Assembly: GCA_944389505.1 (NCBI GenBank)
Contig: CALXMP010000010.1
Span: 4,267 to 68,266 of the forward strand
Direction: 5' to 3'
Source of the DNA: an uncultured Spirochaetaceae bacterium
Lineage (GTDB): Bacteria; Spirochaetota; Spirochaetia; Sphaerochaetales; Sphaerochaetaceae
Length of the DNA stretch: 64,000 nucleotides
A program made the position numbers and the translations under genes. Positions 56,318-63,874 of this stretch are shown one piece after another. The notes below the pieces were generated by a model that saw only the letters and a program-made list of their open reading frames with translations, searched no databases and was not told where the DNA came from. Each line of letters opens with the position of its first letter. Position 1 is the first letter of the stretch.

Positions 56318-57312
56318 TTTACCCTCCTCCTTTCCCTAATCTCTATCTTATACGGGAGCATAACCTTCTGCTTCCGTGCGGGATCCTTGATTGTATCAAG
56401 CATCAGTCCCGCTGCAGTCTTTCCTACAGTCCTGTAGTCAAGATCCAGCGAGGATATGCCGAGATAGCTGTTTATCCAGCTGTCCTCTATAGCGAATATC
56501 TCGGTTCTGTCAACGTCCATATCACGCATTACAGAAAGAAGCGTGCGGACAATGGTCTCATCTGCGGCTATTATGACCTCGGGGATATGCCCGGAAGCCA
56601 CGATATCACTGAAAGCTGAGGCGATAAGCTCCTCGGTATTCAGCCCCTGCCTCACGATTGCTTTATCGGGATCGGCACCGGAAAGCGCAAGCGCCATCCT
56701 GAAGCCTTCCAGTAACTTGATATTGCCGGAGAATTCCTTATCCGCAGAGAAGAATGCGATATCCGAGAAACCACGCCCACGATAGTAGCCTATGACCTCG
56801 CGCATTATCTGCCGGCCATCGAACTCGACGATATTCTTCCCCTCTTCATTGCAGTATGGCCCGATCAGCACATACGGAAGTCCCCTATCCTCAAGAACGT
56901 GGATATTAGGATCATCGGGAATCGAATAGAGAAGCATTATGCCCTCTACCCTGTTCTTGTATATGAATCTGCGTATGGCATCATCCTCATTGCCCTTTCC
57001 GGAAGCTATGAGAAGGTCGTAATCCTCCCCTGCGAAGGACTCCCTCATTCCCATGAATATCTCACGGAAGAACTCATTGCGGAAGAATGATGTCATCTGG
57101 AATGGTGTTATGAATCCTATCGTCCTGGACTGGCTTGAGCGCAGCGCCCTTGCATTCTCGCTAGCAATGAAGTTCGTATCATCAAGCACTTTCTGGACTT
57201 TGATGCGGTTCTTCTCCGTCACTGTCGGATCATTATTGATGACTCGGGACACAGTTGTCTTGGATACTCCTGCCTGTGCCGCTATATCAATAATCGTCAG
57301 CATCTTCTTCAT
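56314..57312 (-). CDS. LacI-family transcriptional regulator
   Basis: MKKMLTIIDIAAQAGVSKTTVSRVINN HTH. Stop overlaps the SBP start. Confidence 0.9.
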   Translation of the reverse strand: MKKMLTIIDIAAQAGVSKTTVSRVINNDPTVTEKNRIKVQKVLDDTNFIASENARALRSSQSRTIGFITPFQMTSFFRNEFFREIFMGMRESFAGEDYDLLIASGKGNEDDAIRRFIYKNRVEGIMLLYSIPDDPNIHVLEDRGLPYVLIGPYCNEEGKNIVEFDGRQIMREVIGYYRGRGFSDIAFFSADKEFSGNIKLLEGFRMALALSGADPDKAIVRQGLNTEELIASAFSDIVASGHIPEVIIAADETIVRTLLSVMRDMDVDRTEIFAIEDSWINSYLGISSLDLDYRTVGKTAAGLMLDTIKDPARKQKVMLPYKIEIRERRRVK

Positions 57313-57371
57313 AGCCCACCATAGGAACGATATTTTATCTCTTTTTCTTGCAATAAAAGAATAAGTACCAA

Positions 57372-57393
57372 GAAAAAGGAACGTTCCTTTTTC
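57372..57393. promoter_or_regulatory. Perfect 22-bp palindrome, candidate LacI-type operator
   Basis: GAAAAAGGAACGTTCCTTTTTC with a central CG, 60-80 nt upstream of the lacI-family ATG at 57312. Confidence 0.6.
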
Positions 57394-57480
57394 AGGATAA
57401 CCTATAAACCGATATTTGCAAGACTAAACTTTAACTCAAAGTTAAAACATATGCACAGATTTTGCAACTGTTGGCGCAGT

Positions 57481-57504
57481 ATTGTTGCAGAATGGTGCAA
57501 CAAT
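57481..57504. promoter_or_regulatory. Inverted repeat ATTGTTGCA-n6-TGCAACAAT
   Basis: Perfect 9-bp arms in a 290-bp ORF-free spacer. Related TTGCAAC half-sites lie nearby. Confidence 0.3.
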
Positions 57505-57682
57505 GACTAATGAATAATTATGAGGCATGCATAAATGAACAGAGCCTTCTCCGCACAGGCTAAGAGAAGGCCCTCATCATTAATCTAGGAATCGAGGAAT
57601 ACTCCCGATCCTCATAGCAATGCACCACAATGCATTCCCATCAGTAACGGAAGGGCACTGGCCTAGGCCAGCACCCGCATAT

Positions 57683-57889
57683 TCAGACGGAAACCATGTT
57701 CCCGCCCCTGTCTGCCCAGGAGTTATCTCCTGAGGCATAGCGCCTCTTGTAGTCCCGGACCGTATATAGATTCAGTCCTGCAAGCTGCGCCGTCTTCTTA
57801 TAACCGTAACCCTCTTCAAAGAGCTTTAAGCATTCCTTACGTTTCTCAGCTGGAATCCTGTGCCGGAGGGACGTATTCTTATCTTCCAT
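57683..57889 (-). CDS. Orphan helix-turn-helix protein resembling the N-terminal (OrfA) HTH of IS3-type transposases
   Basis: 68 aa, KRKECLKLFEEGYGYKKTAQLAGLNLYTVRDYKRRY. AGGAGG lies 5 nt before the ATG. No catalytic ORF follows. Confidence 0.55.
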   Translation of the reverse strand: MEDKNTSLRHRIPAEKRKECLKLFEEGYGYKKTAQLAGLNLYTVRDYKRRYASGDNSWADRGGNMVSV

Positions 57890-57903
57890 AGCGTCCTCCT
57901 AAC

Positions 57904-57928
57904 CCCACCCAGTCTGCTGCTGGGTGGG
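57904..57928 (-). other. Strong intercistronic hairpin between the lipoprotein and HTH genes
   Basis: CCCACCCAG, a 7-nt loop, then CTGGGTGGG (perfect 9 bp). On the coding (minus) strand the T-run precedes the stem, so it is not a canonical terminator. Confidence 0.6.
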
Positions 57929-57945
57929 AAAAACAAGCATTCTGA

Positions 57946-59244
57946 TTAAGCGTCCTGACCAGCCGAATACTGAAGAGTTACTGTCTTGTAAAGTCTTACA
58001 GGCTCATATCCCTGGTAAGAAATATAGCAATATACATCTACAGTCTTAGTCTCAGCATCCTGAGCAGGAATCTCGAAATCCATAACTGTATCTGTTGTTA
58101 CTGTATATTCCACCTTTGCCTCTCCATTCAGATTCTTAAGACCATTTGTTTCATCAAGTTTTACATATGGAGTGAGATCTGCAGGAACGCTACCTGAAGC
58201 GAGTGCAACATCCATATTCTGCTTAATTGCGAGAGCGGTTTCTGATGTCATTGGAACAACAGCATTCTTTCCAGTTCCAATATTGATGGTAGCTTTCTGG
58301 GTCTGTGAGAGTTCAGGATCATTTACAAAGATATTTGCCTCAAATGACTTTGCCTTATCAACAGTAATCTTAATGGTTCCATCTGATTCTGCGCTAACAG
58401 CACCATATTTATCGCCTGTCTTTGCCTGAATTACGTATCCACCATTTGCTACAGGAGTGAGGGATTCCTTTCCATCCTTCTCGTAAACCTTATTGACAGT
58501 AATAGTTACTACATCATCAATAAAGAGAGAAGAAGGAAGTTCTGTCAGTGCTTCATCATAAGCCTCTCCTGTTACAGAGTATGTAAGACGAATACCCTTG
58601 AGCTCACTCTTTGACTCTGTTGCAGGTACAACATTGATTGTAGCTACAGATTCTGTTTCTACTTCGTCACCATCATATGTAACCTCAAAAGGAATCTGAT
58701 ATGTGCCTGCTGTCGTTCTCTGCTCAACAGAGATATTTGCTTTAACTGTTACACCACTAGTAGCTGTAAACGATGCATCCCCATTTGAAAGCACTACAGA
58801 ATCAACTGTGATATAAGTCTTCGCTGGGCTAGAATCCTTAATTACCTCTGTTACAAGATCCTTTTCGGAAAGACCGGCGCCAGTGACAACAGTATAATCA
58901 GCATTTACAGTAGCATTAACTACAGCAGATGTCGGATCAACAACATTTGCCTTAAATGTAGCCTGAAGATCTTCGTTGATTTTAGCTGTAACCGTGTAAT
59001 CTCCAGTAGACCAATTAGGAGCCGATACAATTCCTGTGGAACCAACTGTAGATGTGCTTCCATCTGTGTAGTGAAGTGTGACAGTAAAATAGTTTGCGTC
59101 AAACGGCTGACCTGAAATAAATGCTGTCGTCTGATTTACTGAAATAAAGTCCGCGTTCTTGTAAGTAGGCATCTGCTGCTCACAAGCTGTGAATGCAACA
59201 AGCATCATAGCCGCGACCATGATTGTAAGAATCGTTTTCTTCAT
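57946..59244 (-). CDS. Surface lipoprotein, Thr/Val-rich, probably Ig-like beta-sandwich repeats
   Basis: MKKTILTIMVAAMMLVAFTAC lipobox, 432 aa, AGGAG RBS. Visibly lower GC than its neighbours. Confidence 0.8.
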   Translation of the reverse strand: MKKTILTIMVAAMMLVAFTACEQQMPTYKNADFISVNQTTAFISGQPFDANYFTVTLHYTDGSTSTVGSTGIVSAPNWSTGDYTVTAKINEDLQATFKANVVDPTSAVVNATVNADYTVVTGAGLSEKDLVTEVIKDSSPAKTYITVDSVVLSNGDASFTATSGVTVKANISVEQRTTAGTYQIPFEVTYDGDEVETESVATINVVPATESKSELKGIRLTYSVTGEAYDEALTELPSSLFIDDVVTITVNKVYEKDGKESLTPVANGGYVIQAKTGDKYGAVSAESDGTIKITVDKAKSFEANIFVNDPELSQTQKATINIGTGKNAVVPMTSETALAIKQNMDVALASGSVPADLTPYVKLDETNGLKNLNGEAKVEYTVTTDTVMDFEIPAQDAETKTVDVYCYISYQGYEPVRLYKTVTLQYSAGQDA

Positions 59245-59276
59245 TTGATTCTACTCCTCTGATTAATATCACGGAT

Positions 59277-59343
59277 AGGCTACCCCCCCCCCGGTTGTGT
59301 TTTGTCAAGGAGTTTTTTGAAGATTTTTGATTCTTTTTGAAAA
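59277..59343 (-). promoter_or_regulatory. Promoter region of the lipoprotein gene: phased A-tracts, a consensus -35 box and a G-tract spacer
   Basis: Minus strand: TCAAAAAgaaTCAAAAAtctTCAAAAAact (10-bp phasing), TTGACA (59303-59308), aaacacaacc, G10, then TAGCCT / TGaTATTAA -10 candidates. Confidence 0.55.
59283..59292 (-). repeat. Homopolymeric G10 tract (C10 on the plus strand)
   Basis: Counted directly: c x10 at 59283-59292, 39-48 nt upstream of the lipoprotein ATG. Confidence 0.95.
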
Positions 59344-59353
59344 TTGTACCGAA

Positions 59354-60208
59354 TCAGTAAAGCTCCAGCTTGGATAGATAGCTGTTAAGCAGCTGCAAGC
59401 GTTCGCCAGTATGAGTATCTGAATATCTATTCAATTCATTGCTTATAGCCTCAATCAGGAAAAATATGCCTAGATATGAATTGAATGCAGTGGGACTTGA
59501 TACATCCGCAACCAGTACCTCATCGGCATGGTATGCCAATGGGGATGTGAGCTTATCGACAATAGCGATAAGCCTGCATCCTGCATTGCGTGCCATATCG
59601 GCTAATGTGCATGTCATCTTCGAGTAGCGTTCTGTTCCAATCAGGATGGCACAATCCTTCTCACCATAGCCAAGGAATGTCTCTATGCATCCTGAATCAG
59701 CACTGACAGCGTATTCTACATGAGGGATATACTGCGAGAGCAGGACTCCAAGATAGCATGCGGCAGAGGCAGATCCTCTGAAGCCCGCAACGAATATATG
59801 CTCACTTGCAAGAAGCAGTTCGACAACGTGCTGGATTGACCTGTTACTATTCTTCGATAATGTATTCGCCAGATTCTGCTGTATCTTCTCAAGGAACTGG
59901 AAGCTCCCGATATCCTTTGAAGTCTCAGTCTTCTCCGGAAGCTTCTGATACGGCAGGACATACTTGTCATTATCCAATGTCTCAGAAAGATCCTTCTGCA
60001 GACGCTGCTGCAGATCCTTGAATCCGCTGTAGCCAAGTGTCCTGCAAAGCCTGATCACAGATGTATCGCTGACATGTAGTGCAAGAGCAATATCCTTAGA
60101 GGTCATGAAGTACAGAGAGCCTCTGTTATCCAGAAAGAAATCCGCGATCTGACGCTCTGTCTTAGTCATCCTTGCGTTCTTTATCCGTTCCTCAAGATCC
60201 AGGCCCAT
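59354..60208 (-). CDS. MurR/RpiR-family transcriptional regulator (HTH plus SIS domain)
   Basis: N-terminal HTH_6-like (MTKTERQIADFFLDN...SDTSVIRLCRTLGYSGF) and SIS domain. AGGAGA before the ATG. Confidence 0.9.
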   Translation of the reverse strand: MGLDLEERIKNARMTKTERQIADFFLDNRGSLYFMTSKDIALALHVSDTSVIRLCRTLGYSGFKDLQQRLQKDLSETLDNDKYVLPYQKLPEKTETSKDIGSFQFLEKIQQNLANTLSKNSNRSIQHVVELLLASEHIFVAGFRGSASAACYLGVLLSQYIPHVEYAVSADSGCIETFLGYGEKDCAILIGTERYSKMTCTLADMARNAGCRLIAIVDKLTSPLAYHADEVLVADVSSPTAFNSYLGIFFLIEAISNELNRYSDTHTGERLQLLNSYLSKLELY

Positions 60209-60253
60209 AACTATCTCCTATACAAGCAATTCCGCGAGAATTATCAGCGCAGC

Positions 60254-60272
60254 AACAACAAATATTGTTGTT
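60254..60272. promoter_or_regulatory. Inverted repeat AACAACAA-ata-TTGTTGTT in the rpiR/nhaC divergent region
   Basis: Perfect 8-bp arms, 46 nt upstream of the rpiR-family ATG. A candidate operator. Confidence 0.4.
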
Positions 60273-60436
60273 ACGGCAATATTCTAATTCTCGATTGCAG
60301 AAATTGCAATAAAATCATTGAAATGCCCTATTCACGCTATTGACGGTTGCATTCAGGCGTTTTGAAAATACACACAAGATAGGAAATCTGTGTATTTCTA
60401 TCTGCATCTCTGACTTGGAAATGGAGGATTTATCCT

Positions 60437-61810
60437 ATGGAAAAACCGCAGAAACGCATGGAATTCTATGGCGGACTTTTCGGGGCATGCTTACCACTGC
60501 TGGTATTCCTGGCCCTTATGGTAGTCATTGCAGTGACAGGAAGGGTATCGCTTGTTCTATTCTGCATGGCAGGGCTTGCAGGAATGTGCACGGCATTCCT
60601 TCTGGCAAAGAGCAAGAAGGAATTTGAGGAAGCCGTAATCAAGAGCATCCAGAATGATACGCTTTGCGTTATCGTATTCGCTTTCCTTCTCGCAGGCGTC
60701 CTTTCGCAGGAGCTTCGCCAGAGTGGGCTTGTCGAAGGCCTTACATGGCTGATGACAGCGGTCAATCTGCATGCAGGCTTTCTGCCTCTTATCGCATTCC
60801 TCACCTGCTGTCTGATCTCGACCGCTACAGGAACATCGAATGGAGCAATTGTCGCAGTGCTTCCAGTGCTTCTTCCAGTATCCGTCAGTCTTGGTGCTGA
60901 ACCTGCGGTAATGGTTGGTGCTATCGTCAGCGGATCTGTATTCGGCGACAACCTCGCACCGATCTCCGATACAACAATCGCATCAGCGCTGACTCAGGGC
61001 GCAGAGGTCCGTGATGTCGTGCGCACACGTCTTCCCTACTCGCTCATCGGCGGCGTAGTATCCGCAATCCTCTTCGTCATCATTGGATTCAGCACAACTG
61101 ACGGTGGTATGGTCACAGAGCTTGTCGATGCATCATATGCGAAGTCGCTTGTGCTCCTGATCATCCCTGTCATCATGATTGTCCTCATGCTCAAGGGCTG
61201 GAACCTGATCTCTACGCTTATCATCTGTGATCTTGCAGGTTTCATACTCTGCCTGGTAATGGGACTTATCACACCATCGGCAATGTTCTCCGCAGCAGGT
61301 CCGATCGGAGGTGGAATAACAAGCATGCTGAATGTAATCTGCTTCAGCTTCTTCATCTTCGTGCTCCTTGAGATGCTCACAAGAAGCGGCGTATTCGAGA
61401 TGCTTCTTGAAAAGGCCTCAAGCATCAGCAAGTCCCCTCGCTCAGCAGAGCTTACATGCGTGCTCATCTGTATTGTTGCCAGCATAGCAACAGGAGCTGC
61501 CTCGATCTCAATCCTTGTCATAGGACCAATCGTGAAGAAGCTCTTCAGACCTTATAATCTGGAAATCACACGTGCATCGAACATCATGGATGGATTCTGC
61601 ACGGGACTTGGCGGATGCGTACCTTACAACCCGATCAGCATGAATGCTGTAAGCCTTGCTATCGCAAGCGGCGTTGTCGGCGAGTCATTCTCATTCCTTG
61701 ATTATCTCCCGTACAATTTCCACAGCATGATGCTTTTCATTCTGTTCCTTATCAGTATCCTGACAGGTATCGGAAGACGCTTTGAGAAAACAAATGGAGA
61801 GGCAAAATAA
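60437..61810 (+). CDS. NhaC-family transporter (Na+/H+ antiporter-like; the family also includes amino-acid and organic-acid carriers)
   Basis: 457-aa polytopic protein with NhaC-like topology. GGAGGA before the ATG. Confidence 0.75.
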   Translation: MEKPQKRMEFYGGLFGACLPLLVFLALMVVIAVTGRVSLVLFCMAGLAGMCTAFLLAKSKKEFEEAVIKSIQNDTLCVIVFAFLLAGVLSQELRQSGLVEGLTWLMTAVNLHAGFLPLIAFLTCCLISTATGTSNGAIVAVLPVLLPVSVSLGAEPAVMVGAIVSGSVFGDNLAPISDTTIASALTQGAEVRDVVRTRLPYSLIGGVVSAILFVIIGFSTTDGGMVTELVDASYAKSLVLLIIPVIMIVLMLKGWNLISTLIICDLAGFILCLVMGLITPSAMFSAAGPIGGGITSMLNVICFSFFIFVLLEMLTRSGVFEMLLEKASSISKSPRSAELTCVLICIVASIATGAASISILVIGPIVKKLFRPYNLEITRASNIMDGFCTGLGGCVPYNPISMNAVSLAIASGVVGESFSFLDYLPYNFHSMMLFILFLISILTGIGRRFEKTNGEAK

Positions 61811-63746: not shown

Positions 63747-63874
63747 CTCTGCGGGCAGCTGGGGATTTTAAAAAAAAACTACTCTGCGTGTAGCTGATAC
63801 ATAATGCAGTATCCGCATATATAATATAGAATTAGCTCAGAATCATAAAAACCAGGTTAAAAAGCAATCAAATT

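Follow-up and report, generated by a model that had tools for sequence, protein, structure and literature searches.

An uninterrupted run of ten guanines lies in the short gap between a regulator gene and a lipoprotein gene of an uncultured Spirochaetaceae bacterium, and its position raises the question of whether the length of the run determines how strongly the lipoprotein gene is transcribed. The locus belongs to a stretch of 64,000 nt, which is referred to here in its whole length as the window. Comparison with related loci makes it probable that the G10 supplies the variable length in the spacer of a sigma-70-type promoter, in which slippage would alter how far apart the -35 and -10 elements lie and set promoter strength.

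Architecture of the predicted promoter at the lipoprotein locus

The intergenic region occupies positions 59245-59353 of the minus strand and comprises 109 nt between two genes of the same orientation. On its upstream side lies the gene of an RpiR-family regulator with HTH_6 and SIS domains (59354-60208, minus strand), which provides the genomic context and stands outside the promoter cassette. Read on the minus strand, the region contains three phased A-tracts of the form TCAAAAA (59340-59334, 59330-59324 and 59320-59314), which recur with a 10-bp period and resemble an UP element; Tandem Repeats Finder describes the unit as 3.2 copies of period 10 at 59314-59345. The A-tracts are followed by a perfect TTGACA as -35 hexamer (59308-59303), a fixed spacer part of 10 nt, AAACACAACC (59302-59293), and the uninterrupted G10 homopolymer (59292-59283, C10 on the plus strand), which makes up the part of the spacer that varies and is the proposed site of slipped-strand switching. 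Directly adjoining the tract is the candidate -10 hexamer TAGCCT (59282-59277), in which T1, A2 and T6 of TATAAT are kept. Farther downstream come TGaTATTAA (TGATATTAA, 59271-59263), an alternative extended -10 that most likely belongs to the 5' UTR, then a ribosome-binding site, GAGGAG (59259-59254), located 9 nt 5' of the ATG, and the lipoprotein start codon itself at 59244. The first-pass annotation, made from the letters of the window alone, had described this succession from the A-tracts to TGaTATTAA, with a spacer of 20 nt between TTGACA and TAGCCT; every element was found where that reading had placed it, and the coordinates confirm the spacer length. Transcription is predicted to start at about 59269-59271.

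The region is regarded as a promoter on the strength of its motifs and their conservation in the family. A consensus promoter scan, which accepts spacers of 16-18 nt, called no promoter in the intergenic region. Because the 20-nt spacer falls outside this rule, the result is not evidence against a promoter, and the absent call is consistent with an allele in an off-length state. A search of Rfam over positions 57000-60500 returned nothing credible, which excludes a known riboswitch or leader. A poly-G artefact of two-colour sequencing chemistry was considered and rejected, as the tract is internal, has conserved and unique flanks, and is found in independent assemblies.

Conservation of the promoter in a lipoprotein gene family

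The lipoprotein gene belongs to a family for which a scan of GTDB species representatives yielded 23 loci, all of them in MAGs labelled uncultured Spirochaetaceae, Spirochaetales or Candidatus Ornithospirochaeta, with up to five family copies in one MAG. The window locus shows about 95% nucleotide identity to MAG GCA_949297485.1, which carries a second member of the family at another locus.

Thirty-one promoters from several MAG species, that of the window included, have in common the layout TTGACA-~N10-G(8-12)-TAGNCT-~17-25 nt-GGAGG-ATG; since this set includes near-identical contigs from different samples, its members are not independent. TTGACA is kept in every one of the 31, the fixed part of the spacer has a length of about 10 nt with ACC or ACT as its usual ending, and an A/T-rich region with A-tracts is present 5' of the -35 element in paralogues as well. 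The -10 element reads TAGNCT in 28 promoters, the others having TAACCT, TAAATT or TAATCT. A TA...T hexamer is kept throughout (31/31), the tract adjoins it in 30 of 31 cases, and the ribosome-binding site, GGAGG or GGAGA, is kept across the family. Three more promoters outside the set fit the same layout (L159 and L160 with G9, L163 with G8). The tract itself comprises G8 in seven promoters, G9 in 17, G10 in four, G11 in one and G12 in two, and the spacers measure 18 nt (four promoters), 19 nt (11), 20 nt (six), 21 nt (five) or 22 nt (five). G9 is strongly modal, and the canonical spacer of 17 nt occurs in none of the 31. The reading of TTGACA, the G-tract and TAGCCT as a spacer-length switch, put forward in the first-pass annotation, is backed by this conservation.

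Individual promoters depart from the common form. L031 carries two G9 tracts (2927-2959), one directly 5' of the -35 element and one in the spacer, which is 18 nt long and is followed by the -10 hexamer TAATCT. In L030 (1300-4281), two family genes stand in tandem with an HTH gene between them, and the second lacks a separate promoter. Apart from the second tandem gene in L030 and L014, all copies examined carry a promoter and tract of their own. The ACC kept before the tract also gave rise to the idea of an ECF-sigma-type promoter, which was discarded because a CGT-like -10 does not fit the spacing and because unrelated metagenome examples occur without ACC.

Conservation across paralogues also bears on a second way of reading the window promoter, proposed earlier as an option, in which the arrangement resembles that of opc. 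The true promoter would then be the extended -10 TGaTATTAA, and the G-tract, located at the -35 position, would modulate contact with RNA polymerase or an activator. The window does contain TG-N-TATTAA with the tract 17 nt upstream, but neither TG nor TATTAA is kept in the paralogues, which show CAGATAAAA, CAGTTAACA and CAGATTAAT, whereas TTGACA and the tract-adjoining TAGNCT are retained. In addition, a start site about 7 nt past TATTAA would leave the mRNA with its Shine-Dalgarno sequence right at the 5' end. Such an arrangement is judged highly improbable, and the promoter formed by TTGACA and TAGCCT is preferred.

Another possibility is that most transcription of the lipoprotein gene comes from rpiR by read-through, the tract being intercistronic RNA with no role in initiation. 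It is favoured by the close spacing of the two genes, which lie 109 nt apart on the same strand with no terminator-like site between rpiR and the cassette. The identical cassette, however, also stands behind unrelated genes or terminator-like hairpins (L015, L016, L018, L159 and L163), which is the pattern expected of a self-contained promoter and leaves read-through as the main source of transcription with very little likelihood. Alongside a self-contained promoter, read-through from rpiR could still blunt an OFF state.

Variation of tract length between alleles and strains

A switch based on slippage would be contradicted by an invariant tract, which the first-pass annotation had named as the observation to look for in related genomes. 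What these genomes contain is a series of variants, with G8 to G12, GGT-G8/9, T-G9/10 and broken tracts. In one comparison, L035 and L036 (G10) and L037 and L038 (G9) show no mismatches over about 1955 nt, and a single G is the sole gap; these four loci come from four different samples and encode an identical protein. At the RpiR-linked locus, the window allele has CC-G10, while other alleles have CC-G9 (L001, L007, L009 and L012), CT-G9 (L008), CC-GGT-G9 (L004-6), CC-GGT-G8 (L010 and L011), CCT-G10 (L035 and L036) or CCT-G9 (L037 and L038), with flanks that are 94-100% identical. L015, a paralogous locus with a different upstream gene, has an otherwise identical promoter cassette with CC-G8. 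The 10-bp A-tract unit varies in number as well, being present in three copies in the window, L002, L004-L009 and L015 and in two copies in L001, L010-L012 and L035-L038, a change of exactly one helical turn.

Some tracts are interrupted. L013 has G5TG3 with a 19-nt spacer, L026, which is outside the 31 counted promoters, has GGTG5 with a 19-nt spacer and TTGATA as -35 element, and the first tandem gene of L030 has TTGACA-CC-G6-AATA-G6-TAGGAT with an 18-nt spacer. Judged by their sequence, they have the appearance expected if a mutable tract had decayed or become locked; provided that such locked promoters function, they hint at 18-19 nt as a working spacing. In L002 (663-680), the G9 is followed by an 18-bp deletion (TAGCCTATCCGTGATATT), and both candidate -10 elements are gone; the allele may be promoter-dead, or the deletion may have arisen as an artefact of scaffolding.

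The distribution of homopolymers outside these promoters sets the tract further apart. In the window, the G10 is the sole G/C run of at least 7 nt, the next longest being two C6, with no G6. An iid model predicts 0.09 G/C runs of at least 10 nt for the window, and a G10 was reached in 6 of 100 dinucleotide-preserving shuffles; a G10 in one window alone is only mildly unlikely, and it is the comparative data, not the window alone, that make the case against chance. The 38 related loci, 159,879 nt in total, contain 33 G/C runs of at least 7 nt, all of them in family promoters, 32 in the spacer and one just 5' of a -35 box. Over the combined length of about 224 kb, the iid model predicts about 20 such runs, and none lies outside family promoters. 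This confinement indicates that these genomes avoid G/C homopolymers elsewhere. Long A/T runs are also rare in the window, the longest being one A9 at 63770-63778.

The same length data can be approached from the opposite side, with the G-tract taken as fixed, whether as a structural spacer or as a regulator site, at a selected length of about nine, and with the differences in length as neutral drift or miscounts. This is consistent with the predominance of G9, which accounts for 17 of 31 family promoters and 41 of 86 among the metagenome matches listed (see the next section). The lack of any family promoter with a 17-nt spacer could likewise mean that a fixed length is selected. Some contigs, moreover, have a coverage of 2.5-7x according to their names, at which a homopolymer miscount of one base is possible in single contigs. 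On the other hand, lengths are reproduced across samples (GGT-G9 in L004-6, GGT-G8 in L010/11, G10 in L035/36 and G9 in L037/38), and the same length in independent samples of one allele group argues against random miscounting. The wide range, from G8 to G12 with spacers of 18-22 nt, is hard to fit to one required geometry, and the tract persists in genomes that otherwise purge G/C runs. Tracts of this length have also been found experimentally to be unstable in T. pallidum (PMC7864442). A fixed element is consequently considered improbable, and a length-variable spacer is the preferred interpretation.

Occurrence of the promoter design in metagenomes

Metagenome contigs were scanned for TTGACAA-N7-11-G8-N0-5-TAGNCT, which returned at least 120 matches; TAGNCT is imposed by this pattern and was the single hexamer scanned. 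None of the 80 loci read among the matches listed belongs to the lipoprotein family. The G-run adjoins the hexamer in 77 of the 86 matches listed, compared with an expectation of 22% (p = 2e-40), and G9 and G10 dominate among the matches listed, within a polymorphic range of G8-G16. Downstream of these promoters, a signal-peptide-like N-terminus is encoded by 36 of 62 ORFs among the matches listed, as opposed to 80 of 312 ORFs in the same-strand background (odds ratio 4.0, p = 1.7e-6). Genes found there, again among the matches listed, include ESPR-type autotransporter adhesins at nine loci with G9 or G10, an 875-aa lipoprotein behind the same promoter with G8, G10 or G11, and pilin-like genes. 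Near-identical metagenome promoters were also observed to differ in their tracts, with G8 in L093, G10 in L049 and G11 in L071, and with G9 in L068 and G8 in L096. As far as can be judged from such motif matches, the poly-G spacer design is widespread and serves secreted or surface genes of unrelated organisms.

The lipoprotein and its variable body

The gene behind the window promoter (57946-59244, minus strand) encodes a lipoprotein of 432 aa, whose N-terminus is MKKTILTIMVAAMMLVAFTAC, with Cys21 as the lipobox cysteine. Its locus can be divided into a conserved 5' cassette (about 59347-59170, minus strand), consisting of the promoter together with the initial ~25-28 codons, among them those of the signal peptide with the lipobox (aa 1-21), and a variable body (about 59170-57906, minus strand). 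The mature protein contains 13.1% Thr and 11.4% Val, and an AlphaFold2 model with a mean pLDDT of 70.6 depicts an all-beta string of Ig-like sandwiches. A Thr/Val-rich lipoprotein had been anticipated as the target of the switch, an assignment that agrees with the lipobox, the composition and the tandem Ig-like model. The protein is presumably exposed on the cell surface. Foldseek against the PDB produced weak and generic matches to Ig, FN3 and Big domains (e.g. the adhesin LigA), the best with E = 1e-4 and a TM score below 0.2, so a specific function is not assignable.

Pfam and NCBIfam contain no family for the window lipoprotein, and exact-sequence look-ups of this protein and of P0046 gave no match. 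A search of 5.8 billion proteins identified 42 relatives, all unnamed, three of which are close (93-97% identity), the remainder being 22-42% identical. In the alignment of these relatives, the N-terminus is almost invariant, MKKTILTIMVAAMMLVAFTACEQQMPTYKNA, and Cys21 is invariant, whereas the mature bodies across the family are only 22-40% identical.

The same division is evident at the nucleotide level. The window was compared by blastn with L012 and L035, which have the same RpiR neighbour and lipoproteins only about 23-24% identical to that of the window. Identity of 94-95% covers rpiR, the promoter and ~75-85 nt at the start of the coding sequence, down to 59162-59173; the body has no nucleotide similarity, and identity returns at 57906-57900. 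Conserved arms around a dissimilar body at one locus indicate that the body has been replaced between strains. Comparison with L012, L035, L015 and L019 distinguishes three unrelated bodies at the RpiR-linked locus, of 432, 415 and 401 aa, and the flanks of the replaced bodies are 92-100% identical. This pattern suggests cassette exchange via the conserved 5' and 3' arms.

The hairpin and the HTH gene downstream

Between the lipoprotein stop codon and the ribosome-binding site of the next gene lies a GC-rich hairpin, CCCACCCA-N9-TGGGTGGG (57904-57928, minus strand), which has no U-run. A hairpin of different sequence, likewise without a U-run, is present at the same place in every paralogue examined, and it could act as a partial terminator, a processing site or a stabiliser. 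The gene that follows (57683-57889, minus strand) encodes an HTH_23 protein of 68 aa (Pfam E = 1.6e-5), for which NCBIfam has no family, and constitutes the 3' homology block. Of 38 loci, 37 have it behind the lipoprotein gene, with amino-acid identities of 60-100%, and a median dN/dS of 0.08 over 55 paralogue pairs (pS ~0.72) points to strong purifying selection. The protein collection contains 168 unnamed clusters of this protein at 90% identity. Co-transcription of the HTH_23 gene with the lipoprotein gene is plausible, which would place it under the same switch.

The start of the HTH gene has a folding potential of its own. In the window (about 57861-57899, minus strand), a stem that encloses the start codon can form between its Shine-Dalgarno sequence GGAGGACG and CGTCCCTCC, which lies in codons 7-9. 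Eight paralogues contain this stem when folded as single sequences, with energies of -11 to -14 kcal/mol; no covariation was detected by RNAalifold in support of it, because the core GGAGG/CCTCC is invariant.

Assemblies are frequently interrupted at the module. Numerous contigs have their start either at the G-run or 21-25 nt 5' of the ATG, or terminate within the HTH gene, and breaks at the module occur in L003, L019, L161, L162, L164 and L165 and at many 3' contig ends. The module breaks short-read assemblies either as a repeat or by heterogeneity of the tract, and its copy numbers in MAGs are probably underestimated.

Proposed mechanism and comparison with known systems

The locus combines a slip-prone tract, a position between the -35 and -10 elements, and length polymorphism at the level of strains, the features of a promoter-spacer repeat switch. 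According to the proposed mechanism, replication slippage within populations would add or remove G residues and shift the distance between the two hexamers, which is 20 nt in the window and 18-22 nt in its relatives, thereby setting promoter strength. With a perfect -35 element and an UP-like element combined with a weak -10, activity would be expected to depend strongly on spacing. The window allele, with its 20-nt spacer, is predicted to be weak or OFF, and the ON state probably corresponds to G7-G9, i.e. a spacer of 17-19 nt. The switched promoter would drive the gene of the Ig-like lipoprotein and probably also the small HTH gene behind it. As several paralogues per genome each have their own tract, a population may display different subsets of the lipoproteins.

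Switches of this kind are already known from T. pallidum tp0126, N. meningitidis porA and Mycoplasma vlp. The gene tp0126, encoding an OmpW homologue, has a poly-G between its -35 and -10 elements, and experiments established an optimum of 17 nt (PMC7864442). The resemblance to the present locus is close, since both concern a spirochaete, a poly-G between the boxes of a sigma-70-type promoter and a gene for an envelope protein. They differ in that tp0126 is a single gene for a beta-barrel outer membrane protein, whereas the cassette described here belongs to a multigene family of Ig-like lipoproteins, and in that the evidence is experimental for tp0126 and comparative here, with spacers of 18-22 nt and never 17. 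In the same organism, transcription of tprE/G/J is permissive only with at most 8 G's, the tprL tract comprises 7-11 G's in vivo, mostly 9, and 76% of 17 genomic poly-G tracts varied (PMC7864442). As in tprE/G/J/L, each paralogue of an envelope family has its own poly-G near the -10 element or the start site; unlike in those genes, the tract described here lies cleanly between both hexamers, and the proteins are unrelated. Homology to Tpr or OmpW was not found, as Pfam and NCBIfam give no match and the modelled fold consists of tandem Ig-like beta-sandwiches, not a beta-barrel.

In N. meningitidis, a homopolymer in the -35/-10 spacer of porA leads to graded expression of a surface protein according to spacing (PMC7864442). 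This gene comes from a different phylum and is a single locus without a cassette common to a gene family. The lipoprotein genes vlp, maa2 and vmm of mycoplasmas are switched by insertions and deletions in the -35/-10 spacer (PMC2268961). The vlp system of M. hyorhinis is similar in being a lipoprotein multigene family in which each gene has its own spacer homopolymer. It differs in that the homopolymer is poly-A in Mycoplasma and poly-G here, in the lack of any sequence relationship, and in the HTH gene that follows the family members here. The vlp genes of Mycoplasma have a conserved 5' region and signal peptide and a divergent mature part, a division that the family described here also displays. 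Vlp proteins vary in size through in-frame tandem repeats, whereas the window lipoprotein gene has no such repeats; Tandem Repeats Finder detected none in its coding sequence, the sole repeat being the 10-bp A-tract unit of the promoter.

The replacement of bodies recalls a different system. In Borrelia hermsii, the variable lipoprotein body of vsp/vlp genes is exchanged between a conserved upstream block, which includes the 5' end of the gene, and a conserved downstream block, and there is one expression site together with promoterless silent copies. As with the Borrelia UHS and DHS, conserved blocks flank a variable body in the family described here, with the exchange seen between strains. 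Unlike the single expression site of Borrelia, nearly every copy here has a complete promoter of its own.

Novelty and significance

The kind of switch is not new, and in the literature searched, repeat-driven (poly-G) phase variation in spirochaetes was found for T. pallidum only, while the gut-microbiome literature found concerns invertible promoters. What is new is a gene family with a nearly invariant cassette of promoter and signal peptide, the replacement of the lipoprotein body between strains at the same locus, and a conserved 68-aa HTH gene behind the lipoprotein gene at nearly every locus.

A more far-reaching proposal, tentative and on balance doubtful, is that these parts form a modular and combinatorial system of surface variation in uncultured host-associated spirochaetes. 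One module would comprise a promoter switched by poly-G, an invariant signal peptide, a swappable Ig-like body, a hairpin and the conserved 68-aa HTH protein. The 5' cassette and the 3' HTH gene would serve as homology arms that shift bodies between loci and strains, and the HTH protein, being switched along with its lipoprotein, would be a phase-variable transcription factor that cross-regulates modules. If this were true, switching of the Mycoplasma vlp type, cassette exchange of the Borrelia type and a co-switched regulator would be united in one unit.

The poly-G spacer, as a putative switch, is a family-wide conserved feature of previously unannotated lipoproteins in uncultured Spirochaetaceae, including Candidatus Ornithospirochaeta, and can be recognised by a simple sequence signature, TTGACA-N~10-G(8 or more)-TAGNCT. 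If the switch proves real, it would allow predictions of which surface proteins are displayed stochastically by unculturable commensal spirochaetes, and the tract would provide a marker of expression state that can be counted in the reads of metagenomes.
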